A stretch of 64,000 bases of DNA from Anaerolineales bacterium. GTDB lineage: Bacteria; Chloroflexota; Anaerolineae; JAAEKA01. The notes beneath the pieces were generated by a model. That model was not told the origin of the DNA and did not search any database. It worked only from the letters and a program-made list of their open reading frames with translations. Shown one piece after another: positions 9,788 through 64,000 of this stretch. The DNA lies in assembly GCA_034432445.1 (NCBI GenBank), contig DAOUBX010000204.1, forward strand, positions 2,143 through 66,142, written 5' to 3'. The position numbers and the translations under genes were made by a program. Within the stretch, counting starts at the first letter, position 1. Each line of letters starts with the position of its first letter.

Positions 9788-10247
9788 AGTCGTCCTGGCT
9801 CCCTTGTCGATCGGTGAACAACGATGCTGCGTGGATCGCGGGTGTCCACGTTCTTGACGATGTCGCTGACGCTGAGCGCTGCGCCGCATCCATCAAGTCT
9901 ACATCTATGTTGACGCATCCATGCAGCAAAAGTCGCGCGCTTTTTGGCTTACAGCAAAAATACATAGCCAAAAATTCACTACCACCTATGCAGGTGGTGG
10001 GCACGTACGACCCGTCTACGGTGGGCAGCAGCTTTGCAGGCGCTGCTGTCAACGCCGATTACCCACCACGAGCCAAAGCACCTACTCCTGAACGTTGTCT
10101 TTCAAGCCAGATGGTGGGCTCGGTATGCAGTTCTTGTCAGATGGAGAAGCCACCGGGGTGCAATGAGGGAAGGTCGAGAAGTGGCTTACGCCAAGTATAG
10201 CACAGCCAGCGCCGACAGGCAAGAGAAAGGGCAAACTTGCCGGCGCC

Positions 10248-41631: not shown

Positions 41632-42239
41632 TGCAATGTTGGGTGAGTGATCTTTGGATGCAGTTCCGCTAACCGTAATAGGCAGCGATCTAGGCTGGCG
41701 GCGCGTCGTCTGGCAGCTTCAATGTTCCAGCGTTGTGCTACGAAGGCTTGCATCTCGCTGACATAACCTGGCCCCACGACAGCCGAAATCCCTTGCTGGG
41801 GAACAAGTGCTTGTGCAGCCTTACGGCGGCTGCGCCGGGCGAGATTGACAAGGGTCTGCTTGGGATCGGCCAGGCGCTCCGGGTCATCAGGCACAACTGC
41901 GCCTGAGATGCCAAGAAGACTCCCGATTCCTAGGTGGTCGGCTAACAGCCAGCTTTCGATCTCGTTGACGACCACGCGTAGCAGGAGTTTTGAACTCCGA
42001 TTGGGCAACCAGGCCGGTAGCACCGCCGGTGGGCAATCGAGGCCGGTATCCATGAAGTCCACCAGCATCAGCATGGGATTGCCGTAGCTGGCTCGAACAT
42101 TGAACCCGGCCACTTTCTGACGGAGATACGACACGCCTTGCTTGCCGAACGTTGTACCCGCTTGATGGCCCGTGTGGTGGATCAAGCGCCGTGCAACAGC
42201 TTCGTCCAGCGGTCCTTCGACCAGAATATCGATAACCAT
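41628..42239 (-). CDS. DUF4276-like protein (predicted Toprim-like partner of the upstream ATPase)
   Basis: 203 aa. N-terminal MVIDILVEGPLDE (conserved Glu in a Toprim-like strand) and downstream acidic cluster MLMLVDFMDTGLD. Start shares 1 nt with the ATPase stop. Stop overlaps the nnr start. Confidence 0.55.
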   Translation of the reverse strand: MVIDILVEGPLDEAVARRLIHHTGHQAGTTFGKQGVSYLRQKVAGFNVRASYGNPMLMLVDFMDTGLDCPPAVLPAWLPNRSSKLLLRVVVNEIESWLLADHLGIGSLLGISGAVVPDDPERLADPKQTLVNLARRSRRKAAQALVPQQGISAVVGPGYVSEMQAFVAQRWNIEAARRRAASLDRCLLRLAELHPKITHPTLQ

Positions 42240-43372
42240 CAGCCGAACTCAAGGGCAAGCTGTTCGACGTTCTGGGGAGCCGCCTTGGGCATCAGCACAT
42301 CGGCCACCGTTAGCCCAGCTCGTAATGCCTGGCGGTCTGCCTCATCGACTGGTGCAAACACCGTGCCATCGGAGCTTGGTTCCAGACGCAGAACTTCCTC
42401 GCTGCCGATGCTCGGATCTGACAGCAAGTCTTCGGAATGGGTCGAGATGATCATCTGTCGGGGTGCCTTGAGTTGACGGTTCATGCGGTGGAGCACTGCC
42501 GGTAGGCGACGCACAATCTCCGGATGTAGCGAGATCTCTGGCTCCTCTAGCAACAGGGGACCTGATCCATCGAAAGCTGTCCAAAGCAGCCCCAGTAGTC
42601 TGAGTGTGCCATCTGAGAATTGGCTCTCGTTTTGTCTGGCTGCGTGGGGGCGCCAATGGGAGTAACCGCCTTCCAAGTGAGGCACGCCTGCGTCATCCAT
42701 GACCGCTCTCAACTCTGTGAGTTGCGGCACAGCAATCCGAAGCGCTTGAGAAATCTTGCGTAGACGAGCATCGCGCGTCTTGACAGGTGTTTGCCATAAT
42801 CGCAGCAGCAGGTCGCGGCCGTAAGGATCATTCGACACTGGCAGAGGCGAAAACCCGCGCGGATCACGTACGACCTGCGGCAGCAGGTGCTGGTAGGAAA
42901 TCGACTTGAAGAAGTCAGCCAGTTCCCGAAAGTCCTGGTTGGCGGAAATCTGCTGCAATGCTGTTTGGGTCAAACGAACTGGATCGCGCTGATCCTGCTG
43001 ATCAGGCCGATCAAGGATTTTGATGCTGTTCCTCCATACTGTTTCGCTCTTAACCGTGGCACGCCGCTGTTGGTCCTGGTTGAATACCAGTCGGTATTTC
43101 CAATCAGCGATTCCTGGATCCGCCACGTCGACTTCGATCAAGATGTCGCTGTGGCGCGTGGCCGACAGACAGCGAACTGTCGAAACGCCGCCGCGTCCAT
43201 CGATAGCCTTTTCCAAACCATCCAAGGCCACATCGCGCAAAAAGCGAAAAGCATCCAGCAAATTGGACTTCCCCGAGGCGTTGGGGCCGATGATAAATAC
43301 CCGAAGTTGTAAGGGAGCCTCGACGTTCTTGAAGTTCTTCCAGTTGCGCAATTTGATGCGGCTAAAATGCAT
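42239..43372 (-). CDS. AAA_21/ABC-type ATPase (OLD/AriA/GajA-like ATP-binding protein)
   Basis: Start at MHFSRIKLRNWKNFKN, preceded by GGAGGAGGG RBS. Walker A IIGPNASGKSNLLDA. C-terminal H-loop ISTHSEDLL. Long coiled/insert region between them as in SMC-like AAA_21 proteins. Confidence 0.75.
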   Translation of the reverse strand: MHFSRIKLRNWKNFKNVEAPLQLRVFIIGPNASGKSNLLDAFRFLRDVALDGLEKAIDGRGGVSTVRCLSATRHSDILIEVDVADPGIADWKYRLVFNQDQQRRATVKSETVWRNSIKILDRPDQQDQRDPVRLTQTALQQISANQDFRELADFFKSISYQHLLPQVVRDPRGFSPLPVSNDPYGRDLLLRLWQTPVKTRDARLRKISQALRIAVPQLTELRAVMDDAGVPHLEGGYSHWRPHAARQNESQFSDGTLRLLGLLWTAFDGSGPLLLEEPEISLHPEIVRRLPAVLHRMNRQLKAPRQMIISTHSEDLLSDPSIGSEEVLRLEPSSDGTVFAPVDEADRQALRAGLTVADVLMPKAAPQNVEQLALEFG

Positions 43373-43393
43373 AGCTCCCTCCTCCAAAGGTTG

Positions 43394-44238: not shown

Positions 44239-45960
44239 ATGCTACGCACAGTTCCAGAGACGATCAACGAAGAAGTCGACCTCTACATTCGCACCTACTA
44301 CTCACTGTTGCGCAGCACGCAAGCCATCCGGGTGCGTTCGCTGGAGGAAACGCACGCCGGCATGCGCGCCAGCTTGCACCCCAACGCCGACGACCCAGAG
44401 CCCGACATCTCGGCGTTCACCTATGCTGCGGCGCGACTGCCGTCCTGCATGCCGCAGGTCAAGCTCGTGCTACTGGGGCAGTCGGACGAGGTGTTCCTGC
44501 GCCGCGGCCGCGTGGACATCAGCCGCTGGCAGCGGGTCTATGCTGCGGCGCGGCGGCGCAAGATGTTCTTCGACGGCCAGGATCGGCTGGCCTGTTACAT
44601 CTCCAGCGTCAGCGACATCGACGACCTGATCCCCATCTTGACAGCCTATCAGATCGAGTGGAACAAGCTGCACTATCGCTTCAGCACATCAGATGCTGCT
44701 GCACGGCTGCGGAGGTTGGCTGGGCCGGTCGAGCTGGCAGCGCAAGACCTGGAGGCGATCCGCGCCGCACTCGGCTTGGAAGTGGAGCCATTCCAGCGGT
44801 TGTGCCAGGCCTGGCGCAAAGACTTGAGCGATAGCTTCCGCCACCTGGCCGAGCACCCCAGCGATCTGAGCCTGAACCTGTTGGCGGGCTCGGTGGCCGA
44901 CTATCGCCAGGCGGTACAGGCCTGGTGGAGCAGCGTGGCCGAGCAGGCCAACCTGGGGCCGCTCTATGATCGCTCGATCTACTTCGTCTCCAGCAATCCC
45001 CACGCCATCCCAAACCTGCTCAGCGGCTTTGCGCGGCTGCACCGTGATGCCCTGCTCACTTTTCTGTATCAGCACAATCCGGAGGGTTTGTGGGATGAGT
45101 GGCAGCGGCTGGCAGATGAAGGCAACGCGGCGGCGCAAGAAAACCTGCTGTACTACGTCCAGCGCAACTTTCTGCAGGCCGACCCTGCGCGCCAGCAGGA
45201 GTGGCTGGCCCACGAGGCGGCCCTAGGAATCCACCGCATCGACAACCCCCACTACCTGGACGTGGGCGCGCAAGTCATCGAGCTGGGGCGGCTGGACCCA
45301 GCCCTTTTCGACCCGCGTCTGCGCATGCCGGGCTTGGAAAAGCTGCGCCGCAGCCAAGACTTGTTGGTCAACGTCGATTACCCGCTGGGCATGGCGGCTT
45401 ACCACCTCTTCTCGCAGATCTCCGCCGCCGTGCCCGACCTGCTGGGGGTGTACATCATGGGCAAGGCCGCCACGCTCAACGGCCGCGTGGGCGACGTGAT
45501 GATCCCCAACGTGATCTACGACGAGCATTCCAAGAACACCTTTTTGTTCAAGAACTGCTTCGAGGCGGCAGACGTGGCGCCGTATCTGCAATACAGCACG
45601 GTCTTTGACAACCAGAAAGGCGTCACTGTGCGCGGCACCTTCCTGCAGAACCGCCAGTTCATGGCCGTCTTCTACAAAGAGGGCTACACCGACATCGAGA
45701 TGGAGGCCGGGCCGTACCTGAGCGGTATCTACGAGGACATTTACCCGCAGCGCTACCCGATTAACGAGATCGTCAACCTGTTCATCAACGCGCCCTACGA
45801 CATCGGCGTGCTGCACTACGCCTCGGACACGCCCTACAGCCGGCGGCAGAGCCTGCTCAGCAAGAGCTTGAGCTACTTCGGCGTCGACGCCACCTACGCT
45901 GCCAGCATCGCGATCATGCGGCGGATTTTGCAGGTGGAACTGGCGCGATTGGGTGGATGA
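44239..45960 (+). CDS. AMP nucleosidase-like protein (N-terminal regulatory-like domain + C-terminal PNP_UDP_1 phosphorylase-fold domain)
   Basis: The C-terminal region LLVNVDYPLGMAAYHLFSQISAAVPDLLGVYIMGKAATLNGRVGDVMIPNVIYDEH and later DIEMEAGPYL / VLHYASD align motif-for-motif with E. coli Amn (LVNIGVGPSNAKT...PDVWLMIGHCGGL...GDYVLAHAYLRDDH; IDMESATIA; LCVSD). 573 aa versus 484 aa for Amn. Confidence 0.5.
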   Translation: MLRTVPETINEEVDLYIRTYYSLLRSTQAIRVRSLEETHAGMRASLHPNADDPEPDISAFTYAAARLPSCMPQVKLVLLGQSDEVFLRRGRVDISRWQRVYAAARRRKMFFDGQDRLACYISSVSDIDDLIPILTAYQIEWNKLHYRFSTSDAAARLRRLAGPVELAAQDLEAIRAALGLEVEPFQRLCQAWRKDLSDSFRHLAEHPSDLSLNLLAGSVADYRQAVQAWWSSVAEQANLGPLYDRSIYFVSSNPHAIPNLLSGFARLHRDALLTFLYQHNPEGLWDEWQRLADEGNAAAQENLLYYVQRNFLQADPARQQEWLAHEAALGIHRIDNPHYLDVGAQVIELGRLDPALFDPRLRMPGLEKLRRSQDLLVNVDYPLGMAAYHLFSQISAAVPDLLGVYIMGKAATLNGRVGDVMIPNVIYDEHSKNTFLFKNCFEAADVAPYLQYSTVFDNQKGVTVRGTFLQNRQFMAVFYKEGYTDIEMEAGPYLSGIYEDIYPQRYPINEIVNLFINAPYDIGVLHYASDTPYSRRQSLLSKSLSYFGVDATYAASIAIMRRILQVELARLGG

Positions 45961-48580
45961 AATGCTGCTCCTGCTTGTTAGCGTCTCTGTGCTCTTTATC
46001 GGTTCTGGCCTGCTCGCTCACTGGCTGCACCGCCGCGGCCGGCCGGACTGGCGCCAGGATGTGCTGGCGGCCGGGCTGTTGGCGCTGGCCTGCCTCGGCT
46101 ACTTCTGGCGCATTCTCCTCGGCGACGCCTGGATGCCGGCCGACGGCGGCGACCTGATCTCCTTCCTCTGGCCAACGTATCGCTTTGCGGCGGAGAGTCT
46201 GCGCAACGGCCAGCTACCTCTCTGGAACACGCACCTCTACGGCGGCGCGCCACACGTCGCCGACATCCAGGCCGGCTTCCTCTACCCGGTCAACCTGCTG
46301 CTGTTCTTCCTCCTGCCCGATTTCAGCACCAAGGCCATGCAGACGCTCAGCATCCTGCACTTCTGGTGGGCCGGGCTAGGCATGTACGTCTTCTTGCGCA
46401 GCCTGCGCTGGGGGGCGGAGCGGCAGGAGCAGGTGAGCCGGCCGGCCAGCCTGCTGGCTGGGATCGCCTTCGCCTTCTCTGACCCGTTCTGGGTGCACTT
46501 CGGCAACCTGAACTTCATCGCCGTGGCCAGCTGGCTGCCATGGGTGATGGCGTGCTACATGCGGGCGTTGGAAGAGGGAAAGGAAGGAAAAGAGGGAAAG
46601 GAGGGAAAGAAGGGGGAGGATAGACAAGTAGATAAGGGAGCGGGTAGACAAGTGGACAAGGAGGCAAGTAGACAAGGCGAGGGTGCAGAGAACGACGAAG
46701 AGCGTTCACCGATCACCGTTCACCGATCACCGATCACCGTTCACCGTTCCCTGGCCTGGGCTGCGCTGGCTGGGCTGTTGCTCGGTATCGGCACCCTCGC
46801 CGGACACATCCAGGCCACGTTGTTCATCGGCATGGCCGCTGCGATCTACGGCGCGTTCTGGGTGTTGGGTGGAGCGAGCGCGCCCTACTCCCGAGCAGGG
46901 GGAGGTCGAGAGAGAGTCGTGCGCTATCTCGCCAGGCTGGCCGTCCTGGCCGCTGTCGCTTTCTTGATCGCCGCGCCGGTGCTCTTGCCCGCGCTGCAGT
47001 TGACGCAGTACACCACGCGCGCCAACTGGAGCTATCAGGAGACCGTCGGCTATTCCCTGTCGCCGGCGCAGTGGATCGGCTTTGTCGTCCCCGGCTTCTT
47101 CGGCCGCGGGCCGCAGCTACACTGGGGCCTTTGGCCGCGCGTGGAAGTGGGCTATCTGGGCATTCTGCCGCTCGCGCTGGCCGCGCTGGCGCTCCTGGCG
47201 CGGCGAGAGCGCCACATGTGGGCGCTGACCGGGTTGAGCGGAGTGGCTTTTCTCCTCTCCTTGGGCATCTACAGCATCGTGCACGGCTGGTTGACACTGC
47301 TGCCCGGCTTTGATCTGTTGCGCGCGCCGGCGCGCTTTGCCCTGCTGGTGGACTTCGGCCTGGCTGCGCTGGCCGGCGTGGGCTTGCACGTGCTGCTCAG
47401 CTCGCTCAGCGACGGCGCCGCCTGGAAAGCTGTTACCCGACTGGCCGATGGCCTAGGCTGGCTGGCCAAGGCCGTTGTGGCTATTGTCGTACCGTTGACC
47501 TTTGCTGCGCTGCTCTTGGCCCAAGACAAGGACCCCACGGTCTACCTGCGGGTGGCCGTGGCCGCCATTGCCGTCATGCTGTTCGTAGGCTTTCTGCTGG
47601 CGAGCTGGGCGTTGGTTGCGGCGCGCCGCAACGGCTGGGCGCAGCCGGGCACGCTGGCTGTGCTGGCCATTAGCCTGGTCTTTCTGGACCTCGCCAGCAC
47701 CGGCGCCTACAACGACCTGGGCGGCCAAGACCCCGCGCGCACCTTCGACCAGCCGGCGATCGCAGCCTTCTTGGCGCAAGAGAACGAGCCCTTCCGCATC
47801 GATGCCCGCACCGACATCGATCAGCTCTGGCAGCCCAACACGGGGCTGCTTTACGGCTTTGATGACGTGTGGGGCGTGGTCAACCCCTCGATCCTCGCCG
47901 CCTACGAGCGCTATTGGGAGGGCATGGGCAGCCGCTCCAGCCGGCTCTACGACTTCCTCAACGCCAAGTACGTCATCGCGCGCAAGGATGTCGTGCTGGA
48001 CTGGGAGAAGTTCGAGCTGGCCTTCGACGGCGACCCTGACCTGAACGTCTATCGCAACCGCGCCGCCTTGCCGCGCGGCCAGATCATCCACGAGGTACTG
48101 GCGGTGGACACGCCCGAGGCGGCGTGGGACGCCGTGCACGCCACAGGCTTCGATCCTGGCCGCCAGGTTGTGGTGGAAGACACCGGCCAGGGCGCGCTAT
48201 GGATGCCGCCGACGGGCGCGCCCAGCCCTGGCGCCGACGAACACGTCACCTGGCTTAAGCGCACGCCCACGCAACTGGTGTTGGAGGTGACGGCGGCCGC
48301 GCCAGGCTATCTCGTGCTGAGCGAGGCCTGGTATCCCGGTTGGCAGGTCCAGATCGGCGCCGATGGCCGGTGGAGCGACCTACCTGACGCCGTCGTTCGC
48401 GCCAACACGGCCTTCCAAGCTGTGCCCTTGACCCGCGCCGGCGCGTATCAGGTGCGTCTGCGCTTTGCCCCTCTGCCCTGGCGCGTGGGTTTGTCTCTTA
48501 GCGTTGTCAGCGTGCTCGGCCTTGTCATTGTGGCCGGCGCGCTGCGGCGGCGGCGCCCTCTACACCGTCTGGACGTATGA
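45953..48580 (+). CDS. YfhO-family membrane protein (putative glycosyltransferase of cell-envelope glycopolymers) with in-frame low-complexity insertion
   Basis: 875 aa. The N-terminus and multi-TM architecture match YfhO. It overlaps the upstream gene by 8 nt. Residues about 205-265 (EEGKEGKEGKEGKKGEDRQVDKGAGRQVDKEASRQGEGAENDEERSPITVHRSPITVHRS) are encoded by tandem DNA repeats. Confidence 0.75.
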   Translation: MDEMLLLLVSVSVLFIGSGLLAHWLHRRGRPDWRQDVLAAGLLALACLGYFWRILLGDAWMPADGGDLISFLWPTYRFAAESLRNGQLPLWNTHLYGGAPHVADIQAGFLYPVNLLLFFLLPDFSTKAMQTLSILHFWWAGLGMYVFLRSLRWGAERQEQVSRPASLLAGIAFAFSDPFWVHFGNLNFIAVASWLPWVMACYMRALEEGKEGKEGKEGKKGEDRQVDKGAGRQVDKEASRQGEGAENDEERSPITVHRSPITVHRSLAWAALAGLLLGIGTLAGHIQATLFIGMAAAIYGAFWVLGGASAPYSRAGGGRERVVRYLARLAVLAAVAFLIAAPVLLPALQLTQYTTRANWSYQETVGYSLSPAQWIGFVVPGFFGRGPQLHWGLWPRVEVGYLGILPLALAALALLARRERHMWALTGLSGVAFLLSLGIYSIVHGWLTLLPGFDLLRAPARFALLVDFGLAALAGVGLHVLLSSLSDGAAWKAVTRLADGLGWLAKAVVAIVVPLTFAALLLAQDKDPTVYLRVAVAAIAVMLFVGFLLASWALVAARRNGWAQPGTLAVLAISLVFLDLASTGAYNDLGGQDPARTFDQPAIAAFLAQENEPFRIDARTDIDQLWQPNTGLLYGFDDVWGVVNPSILAAYERYWEGMGSRSSRLYDFLNAKYVIARKDVVLDWEKFELAFDGDPDLNVYRNRAALPRGQIIHEVLAVDTPEAAWDAVHATGFDPGRQVVVEDTGQGALWMPPTGAPSPGADEHVTWLKRTPTQLVLEVTAAAPGYLVLSEAWYPGWQVQIGADGRWSDLPDAVVRANTAFQAVPLTRAGAYQVRLRFAPLPWRVGLSLSVVSVLGLVIVAGALRRRRPLHRLDV
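46570..46750. repeat. Composite tandem-repeat block inside yfhO: (GGGAAAG)n, (TAGACAAG)x4, (GTTCACC/GATCACC)x7
   Basis: GAAGAGGGAAAGGAAGGAAAAGAGGGAAAGGAGGGAAAGAAGGGGGAGG, then GATAGACAAGTAGATAAGGGAGCGGGTAGACAAGTGGACAAGGAGGCAAGTAGACAAGG, then GTTCACCGATCACCGTTCACCGATCACCGATCACCGTTCACCGTTCC. The purine richness is very atypical for this genome. Confidence 0.7.
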
Positions 48581-52965: not shown

Positions 52966-54237
52966 TTAGGCAGGGTGGTGCGCTGCTGTACCGGCTTCGT
53001 GCTCCGCCGCCAGCAGGGCTACAGCCACTGCAGTGCCCCACAAGGCCCAAACCAGGAAGGCTGGCCGCGTGTTCCAAGTCACGGCGTCGAGCAGGCCGTG
53101 GATCAGCGCCGCGCACAGCCCGGCTACTGCGCCGCGCTGCAGCCAGATTAGCTCCGATGCAGCCGAGTGGGACAGGGAGCGCAGGGAGCGATCGGCCAGC
53201 GCCACGGTGATCAAGCTCATGCTGACGAAAGCGATCAACCCTGGTAAACCCAAGTCAACCGCCACTTGCAGCCAGAGGTTGTGCGCGTGGGGAATGGTCG
53301 TGTCGGGCCCAAACAGAAAGTAAGGGTAGAGCAAGGGGATGACGCTTTGGAATGTGCCCATCCCGATGCCGGTGAAAGCAAAGTCCTGAATGGCATAGAG
53401 TGCGCGCGACCACACTTCCAACCGGCCATCCAACCCGCTCAGCGCATCAGCGGAGGTAGTCGATGTCAGCATCGTGTCGAGCCGACCTTGCCACACGAGC
53501 ACGGCCAGCGCCAAGACGACCAGTGGCGCCAGCAGCCATAGCCAACGCCACCGCAGCACAAGCAGGACGAATAAGGCGCCGGCGGCAGCAATCCAGGCCC
53601 CGCGCGACTGGGTTAGCGCTAGCACGGCCAGCACTCCTACCGCCGCCCCTGCGCCCAGGAGGCGCAGTAACCAACGGCGGCGTGGCCATGGCGCCGCGGC
53701 CCAGGCAAGCGTGAGCGGCCACAAGGCCACCAGGATGCCCGCCAGCACGTTCTCGTTCACGGCCATGCGCAGAGACATGGCACGGCTTTCACTGGCGCCG
53801 CGCAGTACTGCCGGGACAGCAAAGGGTAGGGTGCTCCCCCGCAACCAGAGCACAGCCAGGCCGGCCAAAGTGACGCCGGCCACAGCCAACCCGGCCCACG
53901 CCCAGCGGGCTCGGCTGGCTGACCGCGTCCACGTCACCAACGTCCAAAAAGCCACCACTTGCGCAGCAAACAAGGCGAGAGCTGTGCGCGTCAACTGGGG
54001 TGCAGCGGTGGCCCACAGCGTGATGGGCGCCATCGCCAGCCAGATCAGCCAGGGCCACGCCAAGGGCGTGCGCCGCAGCCAGATGCCGCTGGCCCAGCCA
54101 GCCCAGATCCACAAGACCAACAGCACGGCCAGCCCCACCGGCCAGTACCGGCCGTCTGACCACACGAACGGTAGCAACGCCAGGCCCGCCCACAGGGGGC
54201 GCAGACGTTCCAGCGTACAACCGATGGCGCGCAGCAT
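52966..54237 (-). CDS. O-antigen ligase (Wzy_C)-family membrane protein
   Basis: 423 aa, about 12 TM segments with a large periplasmic loop of Wzy_C type (...LTQSRGAWIAAAGALFVLL...). Confidence 0.65.
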   Translation of the reverse strand: MLRAIGCTLERLRPLWAGLALLPFVWSDGRYWPVGLAVLLVLWIWAGWASGIWLRRTPLAWPWLIWLAMAPITLWATAAPQLTRTALALFAAQVVAFWTLVTWTRSASRARWAWAGLAVAGVTLAGLAVLWLRGSTLPFAVPAVLRGASESRAMSLRMAVNENVLAGILVALWPLTLAWAAAPWPRRRWLLRLLGAGAAVGVLAVLALTQSRGAWIAAAGALFVLLVLRWRWLWLLAPLVVLALAVLVWQGRLDTMLTSTTSADALSGLDGRLEVWSRALYAIQDFAFTGIGMGTFQSVIPLLYPYFLFGPDTTIPHAHNLWLQVAVDLGLPGLIAFVSMSLITVALADRSLRSLSHSAASELIWLQRGAVAGLCAALIHGLLDAVTWNTRPAFLVWALWGTAVAVALLAAEHEAGTAAHHPA

Positions 54238-56088: not shown

Positions 56089-56181
56089 GACGGGTCCTTT
56101 GACTGTCCGAATATCTGAAGAAGAGCTGAGAGTAGTCGCCTGAGGTAAGCCCAGGCGTCGCTACGCGGTAGCCTATTATCT

Positions 56182-57129
56182 CTACAATTGCCCTTGTTGC
56201 CAAGCTAGCTGTGCCGCCAATCCATCGGCAAGGGCGACCGCAGGCTGCCAACCGAGCAGGAGACGAGCCTTGCTGGTGTCACCGGCCGTGTGACGTGCAT
56301 CGCCGAGTTGTCGGGCCTCCCGGCGCACGTGCGCCGGCCGATCAGCCAGATGAGCCAGCAGATCAAGCACCTGGTTGACCGACGCCTGACTGCCGCCGCC
56401 GATGTTGAAGACTTGGCCGACCACCGGCTGTTGAACTGCCAGTAAGTTAGCTGCGACGACATCGGCCACAAAGGTGAAATCGCGCGTCTGCTCGCCGTCG
56501 CCGTAGACAGTAATGGTCTTGCCGGCCAACAGCGCACGAATGAAGCGGTGAAAAGCCATGTCTGGTCGCTGTCGCGGTCCGTACACCGTGAAATAACGCA
56601 GGCTCACCGTCGGCACGCCGGCCGTGCGCCAGTACAGCCAGCAAAGATGCTCGCCAGCCAACTTGGTCACGCCATAGGGAGAAATCGGCTGCGGCAGCAC
56701 ATCCTCGGGCGTAGGAAGGGTTTCGGCATCGCCGTAGATGGATGAAGATGACGCATAGACAAAGCGCCGCACCGTCACGGTGCGGCAAGCTTCCAGCAAG
56801 CGCTGAGTGGCCAACACATTGTTTTGCGTGTAAACCTGGAACGTTGCGCCCCAGCTAGTGCGCACACCCGGCTGCGCTGCGCTGTGAAAAATGATCTCGC
56901 AGCCCTGCTCGCGCAGCAACTTGGGTATGTCCAGCGTCAGCAGATCACCGACAACCAACGTGAAGCTGGGCTGATGGAGCAGGCCAGCCAGGTTGTGCTC
57001 TTTGACGGCGCGAGAATAGTAGTCGGTGAACGCATCGACGCCAACCACGCGATGGCCTTCCTGCAGCAAGCGTTCCGCCAGATGAGAGCCGATGAAGCCG
57101 GCGACGCCGGTGACGAGACAAACAGCCAT
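56182..57129 (-). CDS. NAD-dependent epimerase/dehydratase (UDP-sugar 4-epimerase / UDP-glucuronate decarboxylase-like SDR)
   Basis: Start at MAVCLVTGVAGFIGSHL (GxxGxxG). YxxxK = YGVTKLAGE. Confidence 0.8.
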   Translation of the reverse strand: MAVCLVTGVAGFIGSHLAERLLQEGHRVVGVDAFTDYYSRAVKEHNLAGLLHQPSFTLVVGDLLTLDIPKLLREQGCEIIFHSAAQPGVRTSWGATFQVYTQNNVLATQRLLEACRTVTVRRFVYASSSSIYGDAETLPTPEDVLPQPISPYGVTKLAGEHLCWLYWRTAGVPTVSLRYFTVYGPRQRPDMAFHRFIRALLAGKTITVYGDGEQTRDFTFVADVVAANLLAVQQPVVGQVFNIGGGSQASVNQVLDLLAHLADRPAHVRREARQLGDARHTAGDTSKARLLLGWQPAVALADGLAAQLAWQQGQL

Positions 57130-57179
57130 AACAGCATTATAGCACACAGGCCGCGGTCTCGGCGAGCGCGATCCCCTGT

Positions 57180-59444
57180 TTAGGGCGCAGTTGAAAGGGG
57201 GTAAAGGTTGCGTAACGCCGGATCGCCGAGCAGGTTAAAGGTGCGGATCATATCCGGATTGCCGCCGGCCTGGGCCAGATCACGCTTTGTGGCCTGGATC
57301 ACCTCGCCCAAGGTGGTGAACTGCCCCCCCAGAAGATGCTCATAGAAGCTGATGGCCACTGGGGTCTGTTCATAAGTTACCCCTTCGCTGGATGGCATGA
57401 ACGCGGCGACTGCGCCGCCTTCCGCCCACAGAAAAGCCTCGGCCAGCGATTGCGTTGTCGGATGCTGAAAGAAGCCGGTCAAGCAGGTGAGAGCCGTGAC
57501 AATCGGCAGCCGATCGCTGTTGCGCAGGCCGGCAGCGTCTTCGCTGCTCAGCAATTGACCGGCCCACCAACGCGGGCTGCCGTGGCCCACGTAGTTCACT
57601 AACCCCACACCGCGGGCCAGAGCGTTGAACAACTGACTGCGGGCAGCCTCGGGGTTGGCCATGGCCGGGTCTGCCAAGTCCATGCTCTCCACCCGATAGC
57701 CAGCCGGCGTCAAAACCTCGTCGGCAATGCGTTGGGAAGCTGTGGCAAACTCGGCCTCCTTGTCGGCTATCAACAGGGCATCGTGCAGCCAAGGAGCATC
57801 ACGCGTCACCTTCTCGTAAGCGATGATCTTGGTCGTAATCGCAGCGATTTCCTGCGCTGTGCGCGCCGGCAGCCGGCCCACCGCCAACTCCGGTGAGAGG
57901 TCATCGTCGAGATCGGCGTAGCAGTGGTCGCTGGCCGTCTCACCGACGAAGTGGGTTTCCACCAGACACGTAGGCGTTAGGTCAGCGTCGCGCACGGCCG
58001 GACCGCTGTAGCCGCGCGGGTCGTAAGTGGCGTCGCCGACCAACAACACAAAACGCGGGGGCGTTGACCACTGTTCGCTGGCAAAACGCAGGAAGTTGCG
58101 TATGGCCTCTGGTCCGCGCTGGCCGCCTGCGAACTGTTCATAGATGGCTTCCACGTCGGCTGTGACAGGTGTTAGGCCGTTTGCTTGGCGCCAGTCGCGC
58201 AGAGATTGCGTCGCCGCCAACAGCTGTGATGGCCCGATGACCACGTAGTCGCCGCCGACCATCTGACGCAGGTCGTCTGGCTGCGGCGCCACGACGCGCG
58301 CCGGTCGCCGCAGGCCCTCCATGCTCGCCACCGCATAGCGGCGCAGCGTATCGCCTGTGGCTGTCGCATCGGCAAACGCCAGCCCCGTGGCATCAGCCTT
58401 GAGTAGTTGCTGATCGCGCAAGAGCTGCACCGGATGTAGCGCGTCGCTGACATCCCACAAGAGCACCGTGCTTCCTGCCTTGAAACCACCGAGCACGAAG
58501 CTGCCAGGCGCAGCGCTGAACTCAAGTGCGTTGTCTTGGGCGGTCAGCCCTTGTGGATAGATAAGCTGCAACCAATCGGGGTAGTTTTGCTCGATGCGCG
58601 CGCCGGTATCCCCTGGCGCACGCAGCACGAGTGCGTTTTCGCCGGGCTTGAGCAGCCCTGCCGGCGCCTCAGCCTGGATCGACCAAAATCCCTGCCCTTC
58701 GTGGAAACCCTCGCCCAGCGTCTGGCCGTTCAACGCCAACACGACATGATGATCGGGGTCGGCCTCCAGCGAGGCCGTGTTGGCCCACAGGCGGATATGC
58801 AATTCGGCCGGCCCGTTGGCCGGGTTGGTTACCACCAAGGGCAGCGTGAGCTCGCGGCCGCCCAAGAGGACATCGCCCAGCCACTTGTCGCTGGCAGGGG
58901 CCGCCAGCAGCGCAGCGCCGTCGTCTGTGGGCACATCGACGGGCAGTCGCGAGCTGTAGGTTTGGTGCCACTCCACCGTTTGTACAGCAGCAGCGACGGT
59001 CTGCGCCTCGCCCGAGGCCGGGCCGACAGCCCGCGCCGTGGGGCGCAAGCCTCCTTCCGGCGCTACATCGAGCCAGTAGACCTGCTCGGCGCTGTAAGGA
59101 TTGTCGCTGGCCTCGGCGTAGAACACCAGGTGCAAGTCTTGACCCTCGCCCAGCGGCAGGAGCGGCACCGGCCGCTCTCCCCGGCGCAGTTGCCAAAGGT
59201 CCGGGGGTGTTTGGCGCACATCGACGCCTGCCTGCCGCAGGTTTTCGGCGGTGATTGCCGTCAGCCCAGACTCACGGGTGATGATTTTCAACGGCAAGGC
59301 GGCAGCCATTGCCGGCTGCGCCGCATCCCGTGGGGTGGTGCCGGTCGGCGAGAGCCCAGCCAGGGCCGCCGCGCCCACAGCCACAACCAGCAAGACTAGC
59401 GCTGCTAGGGCTAGCCAGCGCAAAGGTGGGGGGGAGAGAGACAT
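57180..59444 (-). CDS. Secreted C25-family (gingipain-like) cysteine peptidase-domain protein
   Basis: Signal peptide. C-terminal domain GLVNYVGHGSPRWW ... IVTALTCLTGFF (His/Cys catalytic dyad context of C25). Confidence 0.7.
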   Translation of the reverse strand: MSLSPPPLRWLALAALVLLVVAVGAAALAGLSPTGTTPRDAAQPAMAAALPLKIITRESGLTAITAENLRQAGVDVRQTPPDLWQLRRGERPVPLLPLGEGQDLHLVFYAEASDNPYSAEQVYWLDVAPEGGLRPTARAVGPASGEAQTVAAAVQTVEWHQTYSSRLPVDVPTDDGAALLAAPASDKWLGDVLLGGRELTLPLVVTNPANGPAELHIRLWANTASLEADPDHHVVLALNGQTLGEGFHEGQGFWSIQAEAPAGLLKPGENALVLRAPGDTGARIEQNYPDWLQLIYPQGLTAQDNALEFSAAPGSFVLGGFKAGSTVLLWDVSDALHPVQLLRDQQLLKADATGLAFADATATGDTLRRYAVASMEGLRRPARVVAPQPDDLRQMVGGDYVVIGPSQLLAATQSLRDWRQANGLTPVTADVEAIYEQFAGGQRGPEAIRNFLRFASEQWSTPPRFVLLVGDATYDPRGYSGPAVRDADLTPTCLVETHFVGETASDHCYADLDDDLSPELAVGRLPARTAQEIAAITTKIIAYEKVTRDAPWLHDALLIADKEAEFATASQRIADEVLTPAGYRVESMDLADPAMANPEAARSQLFNALARGVGLVNYVGHGSPRWWAGQLLSSEDAAGLRNSDRLPIVTALTCLTGFFQHPTTQSLAEAFLWAEGGAVAAFMPSSEGVTYEQTPVAISFYEHLLGGQFTTLGEVIQATKRDLAQAGGNPDMIRTFNLLGDPALRNLYPLSTAP

Positions 59445-59454
59445 ACGGTCGGCT

Positions 59455-60582
59455 CTAGCTCCGGCTGTTGCGCGTGCGCAGCCACAAGACGACGATGACT
59501 GCCAGGAGCAGTGCGGCAGCGCCCAGAGCCAGGACGGCGATCACCGCCAACAGAGCGCCTGTGTTGCTGTACGGCTCGGCAGCGGCAGGGCGGGGGGTGG
59601 GCCGCGGCGCGCGCGTGGGCAGCGTGCCGGCTGCGGCCACCGGCTGCGGCGTGGCAGTTGGCGCTAGAGCCTGAGCGCTCGGTGCAGGGGTGGTCTCCAG
59701 GCGTTCAAACACCGCGGTAGGCAAGGGCGACTCGCCCGGCACCGTCACAGCGCCAAGATCGCCTTGCTGCGGCGATGCAGTCGGGACGTCTGTCGGCGGC
59801 GGCGCGCTGATTGGGGCCAGGCTTTCCGCAAGGGGGACGGGCGTCGCCGTGGGCGCGGCCGGCGGCGGGACTGTTGGCACAGGCGTGGCGGTAGGGGCAA
59901 CGGTCGGCTGGCTGGGCGGCGGCGGCACCGGCGTCGCCGTCGCCGCAACCGGGCCCGACGGGTTGGACGTCGGCGTGGGCGCAGGCGGTGTGTTAGTGGG
60001 CGGCGCAGCGGTAGGTGGCGGTGTGTTGGTGGGCAACACGGCCGTGGGCGACGGGGTGTTTGTGGGCGGCACGCCGGCCGCTTGGGTAGGCGTGGCGGTT
60101 GCCGTCGGCGTACTGGTCGGCTGGACTTGACCGGGTGTTACTGCCGGCGGGTCCGACCGGTACACGGTCTGCGATCCGCGCAGGTCGAAGGACACGAGGG
60201 TGTAGTAATACGTGGTGCCAACTTGCACGCTGGTGTCGGTGTAGGAATAGTAGCCGCCGGAGAACTCGTCTTGCGGCGGAAAATCGCCGGATAGAAGGAT
60301 GCCGCGCGTGGGGTCGTTGGCAATCTCGCTGCGATAGAGTTGGAACCCGCCGTGATCGACCTCGGTTCCAGTCTCCCACTCCAGGAAAACACTGGTCGCC
60401 TGCGCTTGGGCGCGGAAATAGCGTAGCGTAACCGCATTGGGCGAGTCGGCCAGCGCTGACGGCAGGCCGCTGAGCCACATCAGCAAGCAGATGACAATCA
60501 CCGCCAAACCGTTGCGCCGGGCACTAGGTTGCCCAAGCCAGCTAGAAAAAACCACTCTGATCATAAGAGCCGGATCATTCAC
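59455..60582 (-). CDS. Secreted FN3-like domain protein with long Pro/Thr-rich linker and C-terminal TM anchor + basic tail
   Basis: N-terminal TM/signal. LEWETGTEVDHGGFQLYRS...YYYTLVSF FN3-like module. About 150 aa of PT-rich repeats. C-terminal LLAVIAVLALGAAALLLAVIVVLWLRTRNSRS. Confidence 0.6.
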   Translation of the reverse strand: MNDPALMIRVVFSSWLGQPSARRNGLAVIVICLLMWLSGLPSALADSPNAVTLRYFRAQAQATSVFLEWETGTEVDHGGFQLYRSEIANDPTRGILLSGDFPPQDEFSGGYYSYTDTSVQVGTTYYYTLVSFDLRGSQTVYRSDPPAVTPGQVQPTSTPTATATPTQAAGVPPTNTPSPTAVLPTNTPPPTAAPPTNTPPAPTPTSNPSGPVAATATPVPPPPSQPTVAPTATPVPTVPPPAAPTATPVPLAESLAPISAPPPTDVPTASPQQGDLGAVTVPGESPLPTAVFERLETTPAPSAQALAPTATPQPVAAAGTLPTRAPRPTPRPAAAEPYSNTGALLAVIAVLALGAAALLLAVIVVLWLRTRNSRS

Positions 60583-63054
60583 CTATTGATTGCGGGCAGC
60601 ACGAGTCATCAACGGCAAGTACGCCGTCCACTGCCCAAATTGCAGCTTGAGCGCAGGATCGCCAAAGACGGTCATGGTGTGGATCAACGCCGTGTTGTAA
60701 GGCGAGCTGCCGCCCATTAGAGCGTATTGGTAGGCCTTGGCCTGCATGGTGGCCTTGCCCAGCCGGCGCTGACCGCTCACGAAGATGGCGTCGAGCAGTC
60801 CTCGGTTCAGGACGGTTTCGACATAGGTCGTGCCCAGTCCCGCCGGCGACCAGGCAGCCACGGACCCGCCACCGGGGTGACGCAGCATCTCCTCGGCCAC
60901 CGCTTGCAGCGATGCCGTGCCGTGCAGGAAATAGCCATCCAGGCAGTTGAGGGTGACGACAACGGGCAGCCGGTCGGCGTTGGTGAGACGTCCCGTCTGA
61001 TCGGCGCGCCAAATGAACTCGTGAGCCCAGGAGTTGACCGTGCCATGGCCCATGTAGGTCACCATACCCACCCCCTCGTTGATCGTGTCAACCATCAAGT
61101 CGGTGATCTGGGCCGGCTGTGTTTCCGGGTAGGTGACGCCCAGATAGGCGCGCACCGGCCGCATGAAAGCGGGCAGGGCCGAAGTGATCATGGCGTCGGC
61201 CACCTGCGGGTAGTTGCCGGTGCTGTCGGCGTTGTCGGCTACGAACAGGGCGCGATTCTGCCACGCAACCGGCCGGCCCGCTTGCCCTTCGTAAGCGATG
61301 ATCTTGTCCACCATGGCGGCGGCTTCTGAGAGCGTGCGCGCGGGCAGCCGGCCGATCGCCAGCTCGGGCAGAGGGTCTTCGTCGAAGTTGACGTAGGCGT
61401 TGTCGCTGCCTACCTCCCCTTGCCATGGATCCTCCCACACTAGGTACGGAGGGATCCAGTTGGGATCGGGCGCGCCGTACAGGTCGATCCCTTCGCCTTT
61501 GAAGTTCCAGTTGCCGTCCCCCATGAGCAGGATGTACTGCGGCGCCGGCGGTTGCCAGTTCTGCACGGCGTAGGCGATGAACTGGCGGATGGCCTCCGGG
61601 TGGAAGATGCCGGCGTTGAACTGCTCGTACAGCTCTGCCACATCGATCACGGCGGTGCGGAAGCCGTCGTGGCTGGCGCGATAGTCGGCCAGGCGCTGCG
61701 CTTGCGGCAAGAAGTCATGGTGGCTGATGATGATCCAGTCCGCGCCGTTGGCAGTCGAACGCACGGTGGAGGCCAGCGGCGCGACGACTTGCCGGGGACG
61801 CCGCGTCTGTGCAGCCGTTAGCGCAAGATAGCGACTGGCAGCGTCCGGGTCTAGCTGCGCTTGCACGCGATAAGCGCCAACGTTGCCAAGGTCAGGGCTG
61901 GCAGAGGCGCCGGTTAGGAAGATCGGGCGCAGGGGGTCGCTGATATCGTACAGGAGAACGCTGCTGGCGCCGAAGCCGTCCAAGGTGAAAGTTTGCGGGC
62001 CTGTCTGATCGGCCGTGAAAGTCAATTGATCGTCCACCGCCCGGTAAAGCCGGCGGTAGCGCAACAGATAATAGTTGGCGTACAGCTCATCGTAGGTGTT
62101 GACTTTGGTGTTCTCCGGCGCCTGTTCCGCTGTTTGTGGGTCCCAGAGCTGCGCGAGCGCGGCTTCGTGCGCTTGCTCCCATGGGTCCACGCGCTGCTTG
62201 GCGGCAGTGCCCTGATCGTTGATGACGCGGACAACTGCTTTGTTCAAGCCATCGACCAGTGCAGCGCCAGGCAGAGCGCCCTCCGCCTGTGTGACAGTGT
62301 GGCCGAGGAAGACATTGTCGATGACCGGCGCAGCCGTTGTGTCGTTCCAAAACACCTGGAAATGGTGCGCGCCGTACTTGCGGCGTGTGGCGATCTCAAT
62401 CTGCAAGGTGGCGGTGTAAACCTCGGCAGCCGGCGCAGGTAGCATGGTCGGCAGATCCCAATCTTTTTGCGCCGGGTTGGTTGTCACATACATGCGGGTC
62501 CACCACCAGGTGTCGCGCGTCGGCCAGTCCAACACCTGGTGAGTGAACCAATGATGGTTTTCCTCAGCACGGTGGACATTCCAAAAGCTGGCAGGCGCGG
62601 GCGGCGCGCCTTGCGGCGCTGCGCTGGCGGTAGTCATGCGCAGGCCAGGGGGGCCTCCGGCTGCTAGCCAATAGACGTTGGCGTTGGTGTATTTCTCGGC
62701 CATTTGATCGCCCCGAAAGCGCTGGCCGTAGAACTCGGCGAAGTCGCCGCCGTCCAGTCGGCCGTCGGCCTCTCCCTCCACGCGCAAAGCAACGGGTTGG
62801 CCCTGGCTGGTCAAGCTCAGACTGCGAGGGTCTAGCGCAGACAAGTCCCACCCGGCGGCGACAAAGTCGCCAAGGGTCAAGCGATAAAGGCCGTCCTCGT
62901 CGACCACGAGCTTGAGACAGTACGGCGCCGGCGTCACCGGACAGCCAACTGCCTGCGCTGCGCCTGGCGACGCCGCTTCCACGGTGCCCGGCGTCAGCGG
63001 AGCCAAGAGAAAAACCAGACCGAGCAACAGACGCAGCACGCGATGCCTTCTCAT
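60583..63054 (-). CDS. Secreted C25-family (gingipain-like) cysteine peptidase-domain protein, paralog
   Basis: Signal peptide MRRHRVLRLLLGLVFLLAPLTPGTVEA. GMVTYMGHGTVNSW ... VVVTLNCLDGYF catalytic dyad context. Confidence 0.7.
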   Translation of the reverse strand: MRRHRVLRLLLGLVFLLAPLTPGTVEAASPGAAQAVGCPVTPAPYCLKLVVDEDGLYRLTLGDFVAAGWDLSALDPRSLSLTSQGQPVALRVEGEADGRLDGGDFAEFYGQRFRGDQMAEKYTNANVYWLAAGGPPGLRMTTASAAPQGAPPAPASFWNVHRAEENHHWFTHQVLDWPTRDTWWWTRMYVTTNPAQKDWDLPTMLPAPAAEVYTATLQIEIATRRKYGAHHFQVFWNDTTAAPVIDNVFLGHTVTQAEGALPGAALVDGLNKAVVRVINDQGTAAKQRVDPWEQAHEAALAQLWDPQTAEQAPENTKVNTYDELYANYYLLRYRRLYRAVDDQLTFTADQTGPQTFTLDGFGASSVLLYDISDPLRPIFLTGASASPDLGNVGAYRVQAQLDPDAASRYLALTAAQTRRPRQVVAPLASTVRSTANGADWIIISHHDFLPQAQRLADYRASHDGFRTAVIDVAELYEQFNAGIFHPEAIRQFIAYAVQNWQPPAPQYILLMGDGNWNFKGEGIDLYGAPDPNWIPPYLVWEDPWQGEVGSDNAYVNFDEDPLPELAIGRLPARTLSEAAAMVDKIIAYEGQAGRPVAWQNRALFVADNADSTGNYPQVADAMITSALPAFMRPVRAYLGVTYPETQPAQITDLMVDTINEGVGMVTYMGHGTVNSWAHEFIWRADQTGRLTNADRLPVVVTLNCLDGYFLHGTASLQAVAEEMLRHPGGGSVAAWSPAGLGTTYVETVLNRGLLDAIFVSGQRRLGKATMQAKAYQYALMGGSSPYNTALIHTMTVFGDPALKLQFGQWTAYLPLMTRAARNQ

Positions 63055-63344
63055 ACGACTACCTCAATCAGCCCCGCAGCCAGCAAGTCCTCGGCGAACG
63101 CCAGCACATCAGCGGCTGCCAGCTCCGGCGTCACCTCGTACTCCTCAACCAGGCTATCGGCCAACTCTTGCAAGGTGCGGCTACCATCGGCCAACGCCCA
63201 CAGCCGGCTACCCGACTCGTTGAGCATGCGCACGCGCGCCTGGCTGGGGGTGACCAACACCGCTTCCTCGCCAACTGTGCCCGCGACGACATCGGGGCAG
63301 TGTTTGATGCGACTACCTAAGGACAGAGGGGTGAATGCACTCAT
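63051..63344 (-). CDS. PqqD-family protein (RiPP recognition element-type peptide chaperone)
   Basis: 97 aa. GEEAVLVTPSQARVRMLNESGSRLWALADGSRTLQELADSLVEEYEVTPELAAADVLAFAEDLLAAGLI is a textbook PqqD/RRE pattern. Stop overlaps the downstream C25 start by 4 nt. Confidence 0.8.
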   Translation of the reverse strand: MSAFTPLSLGSRIKHCPDVVAGTVGEEAVLVTPSQARVRMLNESGSRLWALADGSRTLQELADSLVEEYEVTPELAAADVLAFAEDLLAAGLIEVVV

Positions 63345-63993
63345 CGATCACACTCCAGAAACTTGCGTCCGGACGAAAGTGCAGCTGACCGGTAGCCACG
63401 GCTCGACTGATCTGCTGCAAACGCGCCAATGCTGTGGCAACGCGACCAGGGTCCAAGGGCACAATCGGCAGATCGCTGAGCAAGCCGGCCACGATTTGAG
63501 CCGGGCTGACTGCCTGGATGCGCACCTCGGTGTCCTGGGCCAAGCGCAAAATAGCTGCCAGTGGGCCGGACTGGGTTTGGCCGTTGCGCCAGGCCAACGG
63601 CGTCTCGTGGTTCCAAAAGGGCGTGCCACAGGCGCGCCAGCCGATGGTCGCAGGCAGCAAAAGGATCAGGTCGTCGCCCAGGGCCACAGTGTCCGGCTGT
63701 CCCACGGACACCCGCACCGAGGTGGACTTGCCGATGCCGGAGCGGCCGCTGAGCAACACAGCTTGGCCGCGACGCACGAAACCGGCTGCGTGCACCAGCA
63801 GACCGCCCTGCTTGTAGGCCAGCAGCGCCAACACCGCGCGCAGGAAATAGTCGATGTCCGCCACGTCGGGCGCCGCCAGTTCCAGGCTAGCGCTGCAGCC
63901 GTCGGCAGCAATGATGCCCAGGTAGCCGGGCGCAGCTACTCGACAGCGACGGTCTGCGTCGAAGGATGCTTCCGGGCTGGGCCGGCCGGGCAT
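63313..63993 (-). CDS. HprK-related kinase (HPr kinase C-terminal domain-like P-loop protein), possibly 5'-truncated by window end
   Basis: Walker A LLSGRSGIGKST in an HprK-C-like context (GLLVHAAGFVRRGQAVLLSGRSGIGKSTS). Overlaps the PqqD gene by 32 nt. The first Met is 7 nt from the window end. Confidence 0.65.
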   Translation of the reverse strand: MPGRPSPEASFDADRRCRVAAPGYLGIIAADGCSASLELAAPDVADIDYFLRAVLALLAYKQGGLLVHAAGFVRRGQAVLLSGRSGIGKSTSVRVSVGQPDTVALGDDLILLLPATIGWRACGTPFWNHETPLAWRNGQTQSGPLAAILRLAQDTEVRIQAVSPAQIVAGLLSDLPIVPLDPGRVATALARLQQISRAVATGQLHFRPDASFWSVIDECIHPSVLR

Positions 63994-64000
63994 CCGGCGG

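Follow-up and report, generated by a model that had tools for sequence, protein, structure and literature searches.

Likeness to linear polyphosphorylated peptide systems of a Chloroflexota operon joining an HprK-like kinase and a PqqD protein to C25 peptidases

Described phosphopeptide systems and the operon in the window

Linear polyphosphorylated peptides (LPP) of Bacillota are made by the products of LppA/K/B/S/D/N (Popov et al., Nat Commun 2026, PMC13381572), and their maturation is closely paralleled by an operon found in contig DAOUBX010000204.1 of an Anaerolineales bacterium, at the end of an analysed stretch of 64,000 nt (64 kb, hereafter the window). The operon encodes an HprK-like kinase, a PqqD-family protein, two C25 peptidases and a Pro/Thr-rich (PT-rich) membrane protein. 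It is rather probable that the window holds the truncated first gene and the rest of a Chloroflexota-wide, LPP-like operon for maturation of a ribosomally made peptide that is modified after translation (RiPP). Gene content, conservation, folds, catalytic residues and a precursor motif could be read directly, and this reading is built on them.

In LPP clusters, often located inside capsule loci, the precursor LppA carries the leader YxxPxVLxHQxIxFET followed by a core starting with AQS (PMC13381572). The leader is bound by the discrete RiPP recognition element (RRE) LppB, Ser3 of the core is polyphosphorylated by the HprK-like LppK, and the leader is cut by the SipW-like signal peptidase LppS with the aid of the RRE, further members of the set being an MsbA-like pump and an NTP-transferase (PMC13381572). 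In paeninodin-type clusters the RRE reads a [Y/W]xxP leader motif and an HprK-like kinase phosphorylates a Ser of the precursor (PMC13381572). LPP and paeninodins were both described by the authors as restricted to Bacillota, with an unknown role (PMC13381572).

Five open reading frames (ORFs) were verified on the minus strand of the window, from 57180 to 63993 and beyond:

63313-64000 (-): predicted ScmC-family P-loop kinase of PEPCK/HprK fold, truncated at its 5' end by the window end
63051-63344 (-): discrete PqqD-family RRE of lasso-B1/LppB type, a predicted peptide-leader-binding chaperone (PF05402, E=4.9e-18)
60583-63054 (-): C25 cysteine peptidase of clade A (C25-A), 823 aa, predicted to be secreted (PF01364, Peptidase_C25, 3.7e-88)
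59455-60582 (-): FN3-like PT-rich protein, 375 aa, anchored at both ends (own profile and alignments)
57180-59444 (-): C25 cysteine peptidase of clade B (C25-B), 754 aa, predicted to be secreted or anchored (PF01364, 3.7e-84)

The tight packing of these genes, pointed out in an earlier note on the sequence of the window, was borne out by the ORF positions and the Pfam matches, and its C25 assignment by the Peptidase_C25 model, which matched both peptidases. Read from the sequence, the kinase and PqqD genes overlap by 32 nt, and PqqD overlaps C25-A by the 4-nt ATGA which that note had described. The gap between C25-A and the PT-rich gene is 0 nt (18 nt if the start is the ATG at 60564), and 10 nt lie between the PT-rich gene and C25-B.

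The ATG at 63993 codes for a Met inside the kinase, whose frame runs on past the window end. A public 5-kb contig (L001; L-numbers label the contigs and loci compared), which matches the window over 4033 nt without a single mismatch and adds 987 nt beyond it, gave the full kinase gene of 273 aa, with its start at would-be window position 64134, about 134 nt past 64000. Upstream are about 300 nt of intergenic DNA and then the 3' end of an HlyD-type adaptor (membrane-fusion) gene, so the kinase is the first gene of the operon. The earlier note had placed an upstream part, with a possible precursor, a nucleotidyltransferase and the like, beyond 64000. Neither a conserved short ORF nor lasso B2/C genes were found in the extension, which ruled out a canonical lasso or HPr-rel-A cluster at that place. 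Short ORFs in the intergenic DNA, such as a Cys-rich one of 29 aa, were dropped because they are not kept in relatives, where ABC-2/ATP-binding cassette (ABC)/membrane-fusion genes or an unrelated acetyltransferase gene precede the kinase. A promoter and terminator scan of the region upstream of the kinase returned no site under its criteria. Separately, a conserved CGGTTACAAT element resembling a -10 box (TACAAT) was noticed by eye in otherwise divergent DNA upstream of the kinase in three relatives: L001 at ~650-665 (~190 nt upstream of the kinase start, past the window end), L002 at ~9895-9905 and L075 at ~965-975. It is a lead only and was not picked up by the consensus promoter scan.

The kinase has an invariant Walker A motif in the family alignment, together with conserved H115, Asp-Asp (DD) and TPFWN motifs. 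Its precomputed Pfam family is PF27840 (ScmC), 74 homologues of the kinase were found in a large protein database, and against NCBIfam only weak matches to ScmC (the best), HprK_rel_B and HprK_rel_A were obtained, all far under the cut-offs. For the PqqD protein, the best NCBIfam match was lasso_PqqD_Bac (3.7e-10), below the cut-off with 39.8 of 80 bits. A profile of 16 family members matched TbiB1 (9.6e-16), PbaB1 (9X90, 2.2e-11) and LppB (9X8Z, 4.7e-11) in the PDB, and 12 invariant columns are common to the PqqD of the window and those of precursor-containing loci. By these profile matches the protein is a discrete RRE of lasso/LPP type.

Compared with LPP clusters, a discrete lasso-type RRE is present in both (PF05402 at 4.9e-18 here, the family profile matching LppB at 4.7e-11), and a predicted P-loop kinase of HprK/PEPCK fold probably is as well, the two kinases being likened by fold. 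In the relatives, the leader of the precursor shows YxxPx[V/I] and the third core residue is Ser/Thr (AGS/T, against AQS in LppA), with nearly the same spacing; a macrolactam cyclase occurs in neither system, and both lie beside capsule or exopolysaccharide genes. The kinase/RRE pair, which the earlier note took to be functionally unresolved, follows with its precursor a logic close to that published for LPP in 2026 (PMC13381572).

The differences are also clear. The phylum is Chloroflexota and not Bacillota, the kinase belongs to Pfam ScmC (PF27840) and not to the classical Hpr_kinase_C family, and the residue before the core is R/K where LppA has Thr. The window operon contains no SipW-like signal peptidase, with no S24/S26 family in the Pfam tables of related loci, and it contains neither an MsbA-like exporter nor an NTP-transferase, the ABC-2/ABC/HlyD transporter upstream in most contigs of its clade being of another kind. 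Two secreted C25 peptidases, FN3-like double-anchored proteins and often a pair of extracytoplasmic function (ECF) sigma and anti-sigma factors are carried by the Chloroflexota loci. Moreover, the window lacks a precursor in its cluster, whereas most other Chloroflexota loci have one.

With paeninodin-type lasso clusters the operon shares the combination of a B1 RRE and an HprK-like kinase. However, neither the lasso cyclase (C) nor a transglutaminase-like B2 peptidase was present at any locus examined, that is, in the window operon and the annotated related loci, and the predicted phospho-site is near the N-terminus of the core instead of at a C-terminal Ser. A PqqD-family protein beside an HprK-related P-loop protein is likewise found in the SynChlorMet (ScmC/ScmD) and HPr-rel-A systems, but ScmC scored 32.4 bits (45.5 in L029) against a cut-off of 125, and ScmD 32.2 against 100. 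Of their partner genes, radical SAM/SPASM appeared in none of the neighbourhood tables and no nucleotidyltransferase lay nearby. Nor is the operon the HPr-rel-A system, to which the earlier note had likened the pair: TIGR04352 gave 16.7 bits (cut-off 200) and TIGR04353 gave 18.8 (cut-off 35). Assignment of the system to HPr-rel-A, SynChlorMet, a lasso cluster or a PorU equivalog was rejected for scores under the cut-offs or for missing defining partner genes.

Conserved gene set and precursor peptides in Chloroflexota

One genome per species was scanned from the kinase side, and 64 loci were obtained, all from Chloroflexota except one bin labelled Planctomycetaceae. Anaerolineae, Chloroflexia, Caldilineales, Herpetosiphonaceae and Ktedonobacterales were represented. 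Every ORF of the loci, in all six frames, was then scanned with own profile hidden Markov models (HMMs) for six gene types. After removal of redundancy, 26 loci had 8 kb or more on each flank, and of these FN3-like genes were detected in 23, PqqD in 18, a precursor in 17, C25 in 13 and an ECF sigma factor in 10. A reciprocal survey from C25-B in an independent metagenome collection gave 80 loci; where at least 8 kb was available upstream (20 loci), the FN3-like gene was adjacent in 19, C25-A was found in 17 and PqqD in 15, and the kinase and a precursor were each found in 11.

The linkage of kinase and RRE to the C25 peptidases is real and old, because it is conserved from both search directions and involves two apparently ancient C25 clades. 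It is no coincidental fusion, an option the earlier note had left beside a true association. The adjacency of kinase, PqqD and C25 which that note singled out recurs in the same order in at least seven contigs, and the component set in dozens of distant loci.

The recurring set consists of the kinase, the lasso-type PqqD RRE, C25-A, C25-B and FN3-like double-anchored proteins, often with the ECF sigma/anti-sigma pair, and it occurs in three forms. In the full form (for example L014, L029, L048, L052 and L060), a small FN3-like protein with two transmembrane (TM) helices, the kinase, the ECF sigma factor, an anti-sigma factor bearing an FN3-like ectodomain and a peptide gene of 40-60 aa are accompanied by a large C25, PqqD, the FN3-like PT-rich protein and a second C25; locus L029 (9498-19979) is entirely taken up by these nine genes. 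The compact form has FN3-like, kinase, PqqD and peptide genes, with a C25/FN3-like/C25 triad a few kb off. The window has the third form: kinase, PqqD, C25-A, FN3-like PT-rich protein and C25-B. Gene order was shuffled with the set kept, as kinase-C25-PqqD in L004 and precursor-C25A-PqqD-FN3-C25B in L014, L029, L048, L138 and others. Two PqqD genes were seen in one cluster in L107 (235-510 and 6806-7198), one by the kinase and the other by the C25 unit.

An unannotated family of precursors of about 42 aa was found in most loci, with the pattern Y-x2-P-x-[IV]-x8-[R/K]|A-G-[S/T]-P. The spacing Y-x2-P-x-[IV]-x8 was fixed across 54 distinct peptides. Position -1 was R in 38 and K in 5 of them, core position +1 was A in 53, +2 was G in 48, +3 was S in 36 or T in 11 (S/T in 47/54), and +4 was P in 36. 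The tail is rich in Pro and Asp, with a median core of 18 aa after the R/K. The precursor gene is often directly upstream of C25-A, with PqqD between C25-A and the FN3-like gene, and in L022 a pair of precursor genes whose cores diverge stands in tandem (1275-1394 and 1430-1555). These peptides were recognised by neither Pfam nor NCBIfam, and a profile search of the large protein database gave 619 homologues, all unnamed and none with a Pfam family. An unannotated family was in this way defined with a candidate phospho-acceptor and a predicted cleavage site.

For the peptide-modification reading of the earlier note, the conserved precursor family beside the genes in most relatives is a point gained, while the window itself, which has no precursor, does not bear it out. 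No paper was found on a C25 peptidase working with an RRE, in agreement with that note, to which no described RiPP or surface-maturation system joining the two was known, and a literature search on ECF, Chloroflexi and C25 found nothing relevant.

Possible roles in peptide maturation, protein sorting and signalling

Phosphorylation, the cleavage site, the protease role and signalling are inferred from the gene set, by analogy with LPP. The cytoplasmic lasso-type RRE (PqqD) would bind the YxxPx[IV] leader of the ~42-aa precursor, and the ScmC-family kinase would phosphorylate the conserved Ser/Thr at core position 3 (A-G-S/T-P). After export of the peptide, the secreted C25 peptidases would remove the leader at the [R/K]|A junction, and these gingipain/PorU-like enzymes may thus stand in for the signal-peptidase-like LppS of Bacillota. 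The FN3-like double-anchored proteins could be the outside partners or receptors, the same ectodomain being carried by the anti-sigma factor that many loci have with the ECF sigma factor.

A signal sequence is present at the N-terminus of both C25 proteins, and the signal peptide of C25-A is MRRHRVLRLLLGLVFLLAPLTPGTVEA|AS. In an alignment to PorU (6ZA2) and RgpB (1CVR) the catalytic His (GHG) and Cys (LNCLDG) are in place, and the dyad was retained in every aligned member of clade A and in 13/13 of clade B. A neighbour-joining tree separated two clades, with the 823-aa protein of the window in A and the 754-aa protein in B, which by the tree represent two ancient orthologous clades. Like PorU and the gingipains RgpB and Kgp (MEROPS C25), the proteins have a C25 catalytic domain with aligned His/Cys dyad and are predicted to be secreted, and the conserved Arg/Lys before the predicted cleavage site would fit the P1 specificity of gingipains. 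The clade-A column aligned with RgpB Asp163 (the S1 Asp) is D/E/N in an alignment of low confidence, giving only a weak hint of cleavage after Arg/Lys; Arg specificity of the gingipain type is not established by it. As side observations, the clade-A C25 of L004 (2738-6430) has an N-terminal repeat region of about 450 aa of W..V..DGFG type, and separate proteins resembling these repeats lie behind the kinase at L006:10845-12171, where the gene looks split or frameshifted.

The likeness to PorU brings in another explanation, in which the substrate of the C25 pair would be the FN3-like PT-rich protein: as processing proteases or transpeptidases of sortase-like kind, the two would cut its C-terminal TM anchor and attach or release the protein, coupled to the exopolysaccharide machinery in the clade of the window, with kinase and RRE as regulatory accessories. 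This appears unlikely, though it has points in its favour. The sortases PorU/PorU2 of the type IX secretion system (T9SS) are the best NCBIfam matches of both proteins (5.3e-76 and 4.9e-61), PorU is the best PDB sequence match, the FN3-like gene adjoins C25-B in 19/20 loci of the reciprocal survey (in the description of clade B, C25-B always directly follows the FN3-like PT-rich gene), and the C-terminus of the PT-rich protein, a TM helix followed by a basic tail, is similar to a sorting signal. BY-kinase (tyrosine autokinase) and then Wzy_C genes lie behind C25-B in clade members that reach far enough, and no precursor peptide is present in the window. Wzy_C-family enzymes include protein O-oligosaccharyltransferases. 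However, the scores for the PorU equivalog NF033707, 256 bits (C25-A) and 207 bits (C25-B), are well under the cut-off of 420, an alignment of the FN3-like proteins revealed no conserved motif before the C-terminal TM helix, and exopolysaccharide genes are unlinked outside the clade. The system also differs from PorU in having two paralogous clades that flank the FN3-like gene and are linked to RRE, kinase and precursor, and no T9SS context was noticed in the loci examined, a genome-wide search for T9SS components not being part of the comparison. Sorting alone leaves unexplained the precursor upstream of C25-A and the PqqD gene between C25-A and the FN3-like gene. Sorting and peptide maturation are not mutually exclusive, since C25-A could act on the peptide and C25-B on the FN3-like protein.

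The PT-rich protein consists of an N-terminal signal/anchor, a beta-rich ectodomain, a PT-rich linker and a C-terminal TM helix with basic tail. Alignments revealed the conserved ectodomain pattern W..T..E....GF.LYR ... Y.Y.D ... G..YYY.L. ORFs matched by the FN3-like HMM numbered 82 at the genome loci and 75 at those from metagenomes. The protein of the window had no Pfam hit, the only Pfam matches of the FN3-like proteins being weak ones to fn3 and Pur_ac_phosph_N, and a homologue search with the N-terminal 160 aa of the FN3-like protein gave no match. A single-sequence structure model of the ectodomain was unusable (predicted local distance difference test 40.8).

Small proteins of about 155 aa with TM/FN3-like/TM build, at L006:9516-10004, L007:9516-9989, L008:9461-9967 and many more, are translationally coupled to the kinase in most Chloroflexota loci. 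The gene after the ECF sigma gene encodes an anti-sigma factor (NF052375, 2.4e-9) with the same ectodomain, which is thereby common to this factor, the PT-rich protein and the membrane protein coupled to the kinase. This suggests a common extracellular ligand or partner, and a signalling role is plausible because three protein types share the ectodomain.

In trans-envelope signalling of this kind, the FN3-like ectodomains would sense a cue, possibly the mature peptide, and the kinase and the ECF sigma/anti-sigma pair would transduce it. The peptide would then be an autoinducer and not an antibiotic-type product, and the clade of the window would be derived, with the small sensor, the sigma pair and the peptide gene once linked to them all lost. 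As the whole explanation this is less likely still than sorting. It is supported by the small FN3-like gene directly upstream of the kinase, often overlapping it, in 15/26 well-flanked loci, by an ECF sigma factor within reach in 10/26 with an anti-sigma factor of the same ectodomain, and by trios of kinase, FN3-like and ECF sigma genes that occur without PqqD, precursor and C25. The window, on the other hand, has neither sigma pair nor small FN3-like gene, and RRE and YxxP leader point to enzymatic maturation as in LPP, which is compatible with signalling but no evidence for it.

Several observations weigh against LPP-like maturation. The C25 peptidases carry signal peptides while RRE and kinase are predicted to be cytoplasmic, and therefore direct RRE-assisted presentation of the leader as by LppB and LppS should not be possible. 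No exporter is universal, ABC genes being near only about 10 loci, and in the 64-kb window and the clade contigs no precursor was found by motif regular expression, unfiltered profile HMM or inspection of intergenic DNA. Some loci (L006, L007, L045, L071 and others) contain only kinase, small FN3-like protein and ECF sigma factor, and PqqD, precursor and C25 are all missing within 10 kb. From these loci, the most constant partner of the kinase is the FN3-like membrane protein and not the RRE; the role of the kinase may thus be tied to the small FN3-like protein, independent of the peptide. In L031 (3669-7888), the genes of an ABC ATPase and of two permeases of ABC-2 type come directly after kinase and PqqD, and neither a precursor nor a C25 was detected. 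A similar ABC-2/ABC/HlyD set lies just upstream in most contigs of the clade of the window, and an ABC-2 exporter may belong to the system as an option.

LPP-like maturation remains the preferred reading. If it holds, the kinase/RRE/leader logic of LPP is present in a second, deeply divergent phylum with a protease class new beside LPP (C25, whose other known members are gingipains and the T9SS sortase), and a hint at the possible purpose of the peptides comes from the FN3-like ectodomain proteins and the ECF sigma/anti-sigma pair. A more specific proposal is offered as tentative and rather doubtful: the secreted C25s of Chloroflexota would be extracytoplasmic leader peptidases of a Ser3-phosphorylated linear RiPP, whose mature form, a Pro/Asp-rich phosphopeptide of ~18 aa, would be sensed by the FN3-like ectodomain, in a self-contained signalling circuit wired to exopolysaccharide in the clade of the window. 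If true, it would give LPP-type peptides their first functional context.

The clade of the window and other features

The window belongs to a clade of at least seven distinct contigs (the window, L002/L003, L010, L073/74, L075, L156 and L157/158), in which kinase homologues of 54-83% identity all keep the order kinase-PqqD-C25A-FN3/PT-C25B. Upstream is usually an ABC-2/ABC/HlyD-type transporter, absent in L157. Downstream in the window, three genes on the same strand lie between C25-B and dnaK:

56182-57147 (-): NAD-dependent sugar epimerase/dehydratase, a clade-specific neighbour also found in L073
54415-56088 (-): Wzz-type chain-length determinant fused to a BY-kinase
52966-54237 (-): Wzy_C (O-antigen ligase/polymerase-like) membrane protein, the final same-strand gene before dnaK

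The Wzz/BY-kinase gene comes after C25-B in every clade member reaching that far, with or without the epimerase between, and Wzy_C follows in contigs extending further. Since BY-kinase and Wzy_C are adjacent in this clade only, exopolysaccharide linkage was ruled out as a general feature. As such linkage was seen separately in this clade and in the LPP loci of Bacillota, a connection to capsule or biofilm becomes more credible.

A generic [YW]xxP regular expression found nothing in the window and the clade contigs, and no recognisable small FN3-like gene or sigma pair was present there. These absences would suit a decaying remnant, that is, kinase and RRE as functionless leftovers fused to a C25/exopolysaccharide operon after loss of the precursor. 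It is the least likely explanation and a highly improbable one, because both genes are intact in the clade and retain every invariant family residue despite the missing precursor (among them Walker A, H115, DD and TPFWN of the kinase and the 12 invariant columns of PqqD). The same order with overlapping coding ends is moreover kept across relatives down to 54-60% kinase identity. A precursor that is unlinked, or replaced by another substrate, are both live options. The best explanation is a cluster reduced to kinase-RRE-C25A-FN3/PT-C25B and fused to the exopolysaccharide genes (epimerase, Wzz/BY-kinase and Wzy_C).

A sigma-70-like site, TTGGCA-17-GATAAT, was found at 56175-56203 (-), at the 3' end of the epimerase gene and just upstream of BY-kinase, so the exopolysaccharide genes may have their own promoter as well. 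The C-terminal end of the BY-kinase is a run of eight Tyr (YYYYYYYYASRY).

Elsewhere in the window, a candidate two-gene anti-phage system, HEC-01, was found at 41628-43387 (-):

42239-43387 (-): AAA_21/AAA_15 ATPase (PADLOC HEC-01A, 9.8e-144)
41628-42239 (-): 203-aa protein without a Pfam family (PADLOC HEC-01B, 4.6e-54)

At 44239-48580 (+), a gene encoding a DUF6909 protein (E=1.2e-219) runs into the start of that for an 875-aa YfhO-like membrane protein, which carries a low-complexity insert of KEGKEGKEG and repeated SPITVHR.

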